A program made the translations under genes and the position numbers. A DNA stretch of 64,000 nt from Octopus vulgaris (Eukaryota), in contig OX597839.1 in the NCBI GenBank assembly GCA_951406725.2, forward strand, positions 7,750,001 to 7,814,000. Direction: 5' to 3'. Under the pieces are notes generated by a model, which saw nothing but the letters and a program-made list of their open reading frames with translations, was not told the origin of the DNA and did no database searches. This document shows, in pieces, positions 60,196 to 61,226 of the stretch (position 1 is the first letter of the stretch; every line of letters begins with the position of its first letter).

Positions 60196-60509
60196 AAGCG
60201 CAATGGTCCCAGAAAGGCTCGACACCGTCACGGTGCCCTAAACCTGCAAAGGGAGGTAATTCCCCGATGTCGAGCCTTTCTGGTGACGTCGATGTTCGCC
60301 TGGGGCTAAATGCAACAGTAACACCCCCACCACCCTGCCCTGTCCCTAGCCATATTCAGATGGCTTTAGTCCCTTATGTTATCGAGCAGTTACTGTCTAT
60401 ATCCCTTTTAGAGAATTATTATTGCTTTCGAACAGATTTTCGAAATCAGCAAATGTATTTTGCTTGAAAATCTATATAAGAAAATCCTGCATAGTGAGAA
60501 TTCGTCGAG

Positions 60510-60583
60510 GAAGCGGAGGCCTACCACACGCCGATGATAGGCAATACACCTTGAAACCATGGTCCGTGTGTGGTTTCCGCTTC
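60510..60583 (+). ncRNA. Type I hammerhead ribozyme (variant core CCGAUGA)
   Basis: Distal stem I GAAGCGGAGGCC/GGUUUCCGCUUC; UAC/U internal loop; proximal stem I CACACG/CGUGUG; core CCGAUGA; stem II AGG-CAAUACA-CCU; GAAA; palindromic stem III ACCAUGGU; GUC triplet, predicted cut after 60564. Confidence 0.85.
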
Positions 60584-60869
60584 ATCGGGGAATTACCTCC
60601 CTTTGCAGGTTTAGGGCACCGTGACGGTGTCGAGCCTTTCTGGTGACGTCGATGTTCGCCTGGGGCTAAATGCAACAGTAACACCCCCACCACCCTGCCC
60701 TGTCCCTAGCCATATTCAGATGGCTTTAGTCCCTTATGTTATCGAGCAGTTACTGTCTATATCCCTTTTAGAGAATTATTATTGCTTTCGAACAGATTTT
60801 CGAAATCAGCAAATGTATTTTGCTTGAAAATCTATATAAGAAAATCCTGCATAGTGAGAATTCGTCGAG

Positions 60870-60943
60870 GAAGCGGAGGCCTACCACACGCCGATGATAG
60901 GCAATACACCTTGAAACCATGGTCCGTGTGTGGTTTCCGCTTC
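60870..60943 (+). ncRNA. Type I hammerhead ribozyme, second tandem copy
   Basis: Identical to 60510-60583, 360 bp downstream; predicted cut after 60924. Confidence 0.85.
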
Positions 60944-61144
60944 ATCGGGGAATTACCTCCCTTTGCAGGTTTAGGGCACCGTGACGGTGTCGAGCCTTTC
61001 TGGTGACGTCGATGTTCGCCTGGGGCTAAATGCAACAGTAACACCCCCACCACCCTGCCCTGTCCCTAGCCATATTCAGATGGCTTTAGTCCCTTATGTT
61101 ATCGAGCAGTTACTGTCTATATCCCTTTTAGAGAATTATTATTG

Positions 61145-61226
<82 letters not shown>

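Follow-up and report, generated by a model that had tools for sequence, protein, structure and literature searches.

Within a stretch of 64,000 nucleotides of the Octopus vulgaris genome (hereafter the window), a 360-bp sequence that carries one hammerhead motif per unit is repeated in tandem, which raises the questions of what kind of element this is, which machinery inserted it and from what RNA it was copied. The period-360 identity is exact over 879 nt, in good agreement with the ca. 2.4 identical units described in an initial annotation of the sequence (Table 1; unit positions are counted from 60565, the first base after the GUC triplet). The tandem had been taken to start at 60209, but the stretch 60209-60269 lies outside of it and consists of unit positions 19-79 in reverse complement; at its 3' end, unit position 222, the array is directly followed by (AT)n. 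The unit is free of protein-coding sequence, as had been claimed: stops are present in all six frames, the longest open stretch around the unit runs for ca. 98 codons and has no ATG, and no ORF for a reverse transcriptase (RT) or a GIY-YIG endonuclease is found in the unit, nor any long complex ORF beside 60 loci of the family on one contig (C1). The predicted fold of the unit beats 100 of 100 shuffled sequences (z -5.1). Two of the three additional hairpins proposed previously, AGCCAU..AUGGCU and AGCAAA..UUUGCU, are present in the minimum-energy fold, while the third, GCACCG/CGGUGU, is absent from it. The TATATAA motif that had been placed about 40 nt before the hammerhead is found in both units.

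Table 1. Features of the 360-bp array and its flanks (window coordinates)
Feature	Positions	Strand	Remarks
Left copy of the ca. 225-bp duplicated target	59981..60209	+	(AT)n and mixed microsatellites
Inverted piece of the unit (positions 19-79)	60209..60269	-	61 nt; atypically truncated second arm
Main arm, unit position 64 to 222	60268..61146	+	2.44 identical 360-nt units
TATATAA	60473..60479 (second copy 60833)	+	37 nt before hammerhead 1; candidate promoter
Type I hammerhead 1	60510..60583	+	predicted cut after 60564
Predicted cut-to-cut monomer	60565..60924	+	360 nt, 46.7% G+C
Type I hammerhead 2	60870..60943	+	predicted cut after 60924
44-nt "tail" between the fixed end points	61103..61146	+	unit 178 = 61102, unit 222 = 61146; predicted stem-loop
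Right copy of the duplicated target	61147..61365	+	begins with (AT)n
Host repeat	61351..61649 (end approximate)	+	its first 15 nt close the duplication

Both hammerheads conform to the earlier description, with CCGAUGA at 60531, GAAA at 60553, stem III ACCAUGGU, a GUC ending at 60564 and a second copy 360 nt downstream. Stem I is made of two parts (12+6 bp with a UAC/U loop) and stem II of 3 bp (AGG/CCU) with U.U at 10.1-11.1. The three stems, G12 A13 A14 A15.1 (GAAA) and an NUH triplet (GUC) are those of the canonical motif, whereas the canonical C3 U4 G5 A6 N7 G8 A9 is broken by a C at core position 4 (CCGAUGA). This position is C in the young subfamilies and U in older ones; position 10.1-11.1 is U.U in young copies, G.U in L180 and G-C in the older copy L176. 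The search with a hammerhead model that the initial annotation had suggested came out negative, with no Rfam match at E≤10 on the array (60200-61150), and a scan of 56000-64000 gave only microsatellite-driven miRNA matches below the gathering scores. The fold was therefore tested by the family's own variation in an alignment of 14 copies, 12 from subfamilies of the family and two from older relatives. In this set 93% of the cells are paired and 5 of the 24 pairs have changed on both sides; slid controls pair at 30-53%, and none of 500 shuffles reached three of the five measures, a test that ignores kinship among the 14 sequences and is inflated by their relatedness. Cores of older subfamilies read UUGAUGA, UUGACGA or UUGAUAA, that is, they show the U3-A8 compensation, and stem III is self-complementary across subfamilies (ACCAUGGU, ACCUAGGU or ACCUGGGU). 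The monomer hammerhead fold is not the minimum-energy one (-24.9 vs -32.3 kcal/mol), and the stem III palindrome is predicted to form an 8-bp intermolecular duplex. The motif is probably a selected but slow ribozyme of the dimer type, cleavage being a prediction. Since C4 is also present in a coding Penelope-like element (PLE) family and in other hammerhead elements of the window, it appears to be a recurrent variant rather than a lesion.

A copy-number search, likewise suggested at the outset, rendered hundreds of matches: the unit is multi-copy, with at least 281 unit matches in the 40 of 585 candidates that were scored, the 150 matches listed being 99-100% identical, and fully identical units are present at six other loci. 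Exact (AT)n junctions were found 751 times for the end at unit position 222 and 525 times for a second end at position 178, against none for reversed-pattern controls. The loci examined comprise the 40 best-scoring ones and 60 sites of contig C1 found by their end junctions (26 of 28 close pairs and 34 of 45 unpaired ends; the remaining two pairs and two ends already were in the best-scoring set, and nine ends were left out). The C1 set is biased because one end is fixed by design, and 2 of the 60 sites selected by junction are 16-nt stubs only. Extrapolating from C1, where 103 ends correspond to 75 loci, there would be roughly 900 loci genome-wide. At the loci examined the copies range from ca. 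80 to 100% identity, and they are dispersed over many contigs with different flanks. The family is young and large, and the window locus is one young copy of it.

These properties are those of a retrozyme. Tandem units in the range of ca. 150-450 bp, in dimers to multimers, are dispersed in the genome; each carries one type I hammerhead, as judged by structure and covariation, with a deviating core; G+C is below 50% (46.7%); target duplications exceed 4 bp (ca. 10-35 bp at L040, L041, L046, L062 and L063, ca. 225 bp at the window locus); and no LTR-like arrangement was seen at the loci examined. The animal non-LTR retrozymes described in the available text of PMC7229834, from coral, Mytilus (350-390 bp) and axolotl (330/350 bp), have in common with the octopus element non-coding tandem units of a few hundred bp with one type I hammerhead each, G+C below 50%, duplications of more than 4 bp, and a short palindromic stem III as in dimer-cleaving forms. 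They differ in that they were shown to cleave and to form circles (PMC7229834, available text), whereas cleavage and circles of the octopus unit are predictions, and in that the latter is set apart by its C4 and the U.U at 10.1-11.1. The element is almost certainly a retrozyme, and its family is a further member of the known animal non-LTR retrozymes; the initial proposal of a recent, multi-copy, non-coding hammerhead tandem of this kind is supported.

It could also be the case that a satellite, or another repeat amplified locally at the DNA level, or an assembly artefact had been mistaken for a mobile element, the hammerhead being incidental. The negative Rfam result would fit such an origin, as would the fact that none of the sequencing runs containing the unit is registered as RNA. 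In four studies whose contigs come from runs presumed, by guess, to be RNA the unit closes on itself, and in two of the four 390-nt closed unit contigs are found, a picture that a tandem would give as well as a circle. The dispersal over many contigs with different flanks, the fixed ends together with the target duplications, the covariation of the hammerhead and the closed 360-nt loops in contigs of the four studies all argue against it, and we regard this origin as highly improbable. As a separate matter, much deeper contigs from these guessed-RNA runs share only the unit part 60633-60725 and continue in other sequence, a depth pattern that points to an abundant related repeat.

The mode of insertion can be read from the arrangement of the copies. 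Two divergent arms were found at 82 of the 98 loci with unit matches, the other 16 being single-armed or complex, and 79 of these 82 end once at position 178 and once at position 222, with no locus using the same site twice; the other three, the window locus among them, have one truncated end. In the set chosen by score and not by ends, 27 of 29 two-armed loci are likewise 178/222, and on C1 all 28 pairs of ends less than 10 kb apart are divergent and 178/222. Another 14 two-armed arrays in 15 later stretches, partly chosen as pairs, agree. In the 40 loci that were selected by score only, (AT)4 directly adjoins 56 of the 69 primed outer ends. Arms reach ca. 15 units, and the inner junctions mostly show 0-10 nt of microhomology or 1-17 added bases. 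Two copies depart from this anatomy: L039:5312 ends ca. 11 nt after the cut site, at neither 178 nor 222, and L032:5693-6043 has a rearranged inner unit. On contig C2, L034 and L035 are independent long insertions of different subfamilies ca. 20 kb apart within similar repeated flanks, possibly a local hot spot. Candidate long duplications at these and other loci were discarded, that of L035 being a pre-existing tandem repeat and those of L034, L047, L054 and L057 unrelated repeats.

Direct and inverted copies with a tail at one end are the insertion layout given for PLEs in the available text of PMC8557442, and that of PMC11167929 traces the tail to two internal RT start sites, both DNA strands being cut and extended. 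The octopus family has two fixed ends with a short tail at one end only (79 of the 82 two-armed loci) and an inverted, 5'-truncated copy beside the direct one (82 of 98 loci, including the window locus). The 178/222 pairing is the Penelope "tail" signature, and priming at two sites in the manner of PLEs is very probable. Mobilisation by Penelope-like machinery, which the initial annotation had carried over from work on other animals, is supported more directly here by the insertion anatomy.

Head-to-head arms joined with short microhomology also resemble LINE twin priming, so that a LINE protein, or another retroelement outside the PLEs, has to be considered as the mover; moreover, none of 50 GIY-YIG loci rendered a PLE whose terminal repeat is similar. 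However, the arrays lack poly(A) and a fixed 3' tail, their two outer ends lie at fixed internal sites separated by 44 nt, and the two arms cover the same part of the RNA, a combination described as unique to PLEs in the available text of PMC11167929. A mover of this other kind thus seems most improbable.

Candidate enzymes are present in the genome. Scoring 150 of 6136 candidates in a GIY-YIG search, from which the 50 loci were taken for comparison, rendered apparently intact PLE copies with RT and GIY-YIG domains that have the same anatomy and target as the octopus arrays. In a first young family (L101-L112, e.g. L109:889-6110), a frame of 781 aa gives matches to RT and GIY-YIG and overlaps with a 479-aa frame that lies upstream in a different phase; copies of the family are up to 98-100% alike, are inserted at (AT)n, and have inverted arms and a tail of 40 nt, and relatives carry a U3-A8 hammerhead. 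The second, also young (L113:2600-5780, L116), has an inverted arm, a tail of ca. 30 nt and the hammerhead core CCGAAGA. By blastn and nhmmer, no autonomous PLE resembling the unit was found among the 50 loci; weak matches beside the two families proved to be independent old copies of relatives of the repeat.

Several observations indicate that the two arms of a locus share their template. They are of one subfamily at 31 of 32 loci, where independent arms would be expected to agree in 36% of cases. On the template their ends lie no more than 25 nt apart in 14 of 52 C1 loci, compared with 4.5 in permutations (p 5e-5; the complex loci L031, L032, L056, L124 and L125 are left out of this test and of those on the arm that runs further and on termination rates), and the two arms of L130, L204 and L063 carry private changes in the same unit. 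Taken together, the shared subfamily, co-termination and shared private changes imply that one RNA usually serves both arms, which we consider likely. At 14 of 18 near-coterminal loci it is the arm primed at 178 that extends further (p 0.03), a lead that cannot come from fold-back of the 222 cDNA. Fold-back was rejected as the general origin of the second arm, the 178 arm often being much or slightly longer than the 222 arm allows; it is possible at L063 and at the window locus.

Whether this RNA is circular is less clear-cut. The change 104A>G occurs genome-wide in six units only, all of them consecutive in one arm of L124, which favours circles. The termination rate per 100 nt goes up from 0.09 to 0.39 when the priming region is first reached again but shows no such step on later passes (0.12 to 0.17), although the window 175-235 was chosen after the co-termination result and the p value of 0.002 is optimistic. 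Arms of up to ca. 15 units and the 327 clean ones among 332 crossed cut sites likewise fit repeated reading of a unit. On the other hand, three units that differ from one another follow in identical order in the two arms of L063, and 4G>T of L204 is confined to the unit that was copied first in each arm, so that a multi-unit template is needed in both cases and a template consisting of monomer circles only fails. L063 is a chimera of two subfamilies with the switch between unit positions 199 and 277, not at the cut site, and an array that could be its source was not found in the assembly. At L035, L042, L050, L054, L060 and L066 variants recur without being fixed, in some cases with a period of 2-5 units; in the first three of these the order of variants differs between the arms, and template switches or later rearrangement are therefore needed. 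Most of these data are accounted for by circles that hold one to several units, the template being switched now and then.

The simplest circular alternative, in which every array was rolled off a single 360-nt monomer circle, would account for the pattern of L124 and for the uniformity of most long arrays, e.g. L195, with 14 segments and no recurrent unfixed variant. Such a circle presents the same template base on every pass, yet 4G>T stands in the first-copied unit only at L204, and neither the three different units of L063 in identical order in both arms nor the recurrent unfixed variants at the six loci named above would be produced by it. Barring assembly errors at L063 and L204, these loci contradict a strict monomer circle, and we give this alternative very little credit. 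Of the circular template initially suggested, then, the circle itself fits some loci such as L124, and its restriction to one monomer does not hold.

A more serious alternative keeps the two-site priming by a PLE protein and replaces the circle by a linear, uncleaved multi-unit transcript, the hammerhead being slow or dispensable for insertion and the arrays lengthening by in-register RT slips or by unequal crossing-over. L063 and L204 require a continuous multi-unit template, and 327 of 332 crossed hammerhead junctions are clean; co-termination would fit a shared 5' end, the core is weakened by C4 and by the U.U at 10.1-11.1, and hammerhead mutants had no effect on insertion of PAc in vitro, according to the available text of PMC11167929, where unprocessed RNA is given as the main substrate of an anole PLE. 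In the same vein, only one of nine predicted Xenopus retrozyme dimers cleaved (preprint 10.64898/2026.07.22.740005, available text). A pile-up of arm ends at the ribozyme cut in raw BLAST hits was mostly an artefact of split hits and is not significant after refinement (6 of 201 ends vs 2.7 expected, p 0.06; 5.0 expected at the local rate). A linear template is at odds, however, with the private change found in six of six units of one L124 arm and nowhere else in the assembly, with a termination step confined to the first return to the start, with the L063 chimera having no source array in the assembly (though sources may be lost) and with the continued selection on the hammerhead. We hold the linear template to be unlikely, and circles, monomeric and oligomeric, to be the main template with moderate probability. 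A-to-I editing of the template was considered and dropped: A>G makes up 2 of the 3 private fixed changes vs 4 of the 56 private single substitutions, too few cases for a claim.

On balance we favour, with some reserve, a non-coding 360-nt hammerhead retrozyme that is inserted by a PLE protein priming at two sites on one, probably circular, RNA. Tandem transcripts would cut themselves at a slow rate, probably in dimers held by the palindromic stem III, and would close into circles of one to several units. The RT-endonuclease of a PLE would cut both DNA strands at (AT)n microsatellites, one strand priming at 178 and the other at 222, 44 nt apart on a single RNA; both RTs would then run 3' to 5' through intact hammerhead sites, and the two cDNA ends would be joined head to head, either by microhomology or bluntly. 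A further, tentative step would be that a dimeric PLE protein loads two RTs in a fixed order onto one RNA, one for each strand and start site, and that tandem arrays arise as they run round circles of one to several units, so that whole two-armed arrays are made per event, sometimes with an RNA edit fixed in every unit. If this were true, drift to a slower hammerhead core would keep the templates intact, and the octopus arrays would be the first per-insertion record both of the PLE mechanism and of the mobilisation of retrozymes.

The window locus departs from the general anatomy. Alone among the 98 loci it has a clear long duplication, a feature missed by the initial annotation: ca. 218-228 bp of target flank the element in two copies, ca. 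225 bp each, that are 93.9% identical over 228 columns and differ in microsatellite length. The left copy ends with the first 15 nt of a repeat that is complete on the right side and resembles a tRNA-derived SINE; ARAGORN rendered no gene within 59500-62500. The array ends at the 222 site, the only one of the two ends present here. The 222-primed arm would be the complete one and the 61-nt inverted piece, with 1 nt of microhomology at the flank and 2 nt at the inner junction, the remnant of a second arm, followed by the target duplication. The (AT)n at the start of the right target copy would have primed reverse transcription; the cDNA would then have switched onto an antisense copy of the unit and from there onto target sequence ca. 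225 bp away, the remnant and the duplication being likely results of template switches during repair. It is also possible that a 178-primed arm has been lost.

The retrozyme descriptions compared in the available text of PMC7229834, in which the words "inverted", "microsatellite" and "cephalopod" have no occurrence, mention neither ends fixed at two sites nor inverted arms nor (AT)n targeting, and a literature search of openly available main texts rendered no report of a retrozyme from a cephalopod or of one that ends at two sites. Both the enzyme that moves retrozymes and the role of circles as template are proposals in the available discussion of PMC7229834, and the preprint 10.64898/2026.07.22.740005, in its available text, argues for the mover from phylogeny. 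The latter, a survey of vertebrate retrozymes, proposes local amplification after insertion, unlike which the octopus data point to arrays that arrive ready-made.

Endonuclease PLEs (Penelope/Poseidon, Neptune and Naiad), as described in the available texts of PMC8557442 and PMC11167929, share with the octopus element a partial tandem with an inverted 5'-truncated copy, a tail at one end, a (TA)n target, two internal RT starts and a hammerhead in the terminal repeat; the octopus unit differs in having no ORF, a tail of 44 nt instead of 30-40 nt and whole arms of up to ca. 15 units. Site pairing per insertion is strict in octopus, whereas in vitro PLE work saw no bulk difference between strands (PMC11167929, available text). 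Chlamys PLEs such as MRC1 also are non-autonomous, PLE-mobilised and frequently head-to-tail in multiple copies, but they are algal, belong to clades lacking canonical hammerheads and generally resemble an autonomous partner at the 3' end (PMC8557442, available text), while no such partner was found in octopus among the 50 loci. With the hammerheads associated with PLEs in the available text of PMC4209133 the octopus motif has in common the U3-A8 covariation and a palindromic helix III that favours dimeric folding; its stem I is long and in two parts, whereas the PLE-associated variants are minimal, and its C4 core, not encountered in the descriptions available there, is present in the coding octopus PLE family. 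The family thus presents the PLE signature at single-base precision on a 360-nt non-coding RNA, at ca. 900 loci by extrapolation, and provides a small substrate for which two start sites, a strand pairing and a lead of one enzyme over the other are predicted. It may serve as a test case for retrozyme movement in the existing in vitro PLE assay, and the arrays may show how the tandem and inverted structures of PLEs originate.

Other repeats of the window deserve mention. A two-armed hammerhead element of another family lies between (TA)n runs at 38646-39628, with CCGAUGA cores at 39007 (-) and 39377 (+), a palindromic stem III and arms that are 98.9% alike over 278 nt, and an older two-armed relative of the unit lies in (TA)n at 56667-57102, with a hammerhead at 56927 (-) that has a CCGACGA core and a palindromic stem III. 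Hammerhead-like motifs were found by descriptor at 57975 (-), 59762 (-), 3379 (+) and 1113 (-), that at 59762, 450 bp to the left of the array, having the canonical CUGAUGA core. To the right of the array, 61828-62226 contains an N-terminal fragment of a Tc1-like transposase (PF01498, E 6.5e-7, below the curated cut-off). A 478-copy TTA tract occupies 16894-18327, and two short tandem arrays of a 184-bp unit are located at 45723-46207 and 49678-50052.
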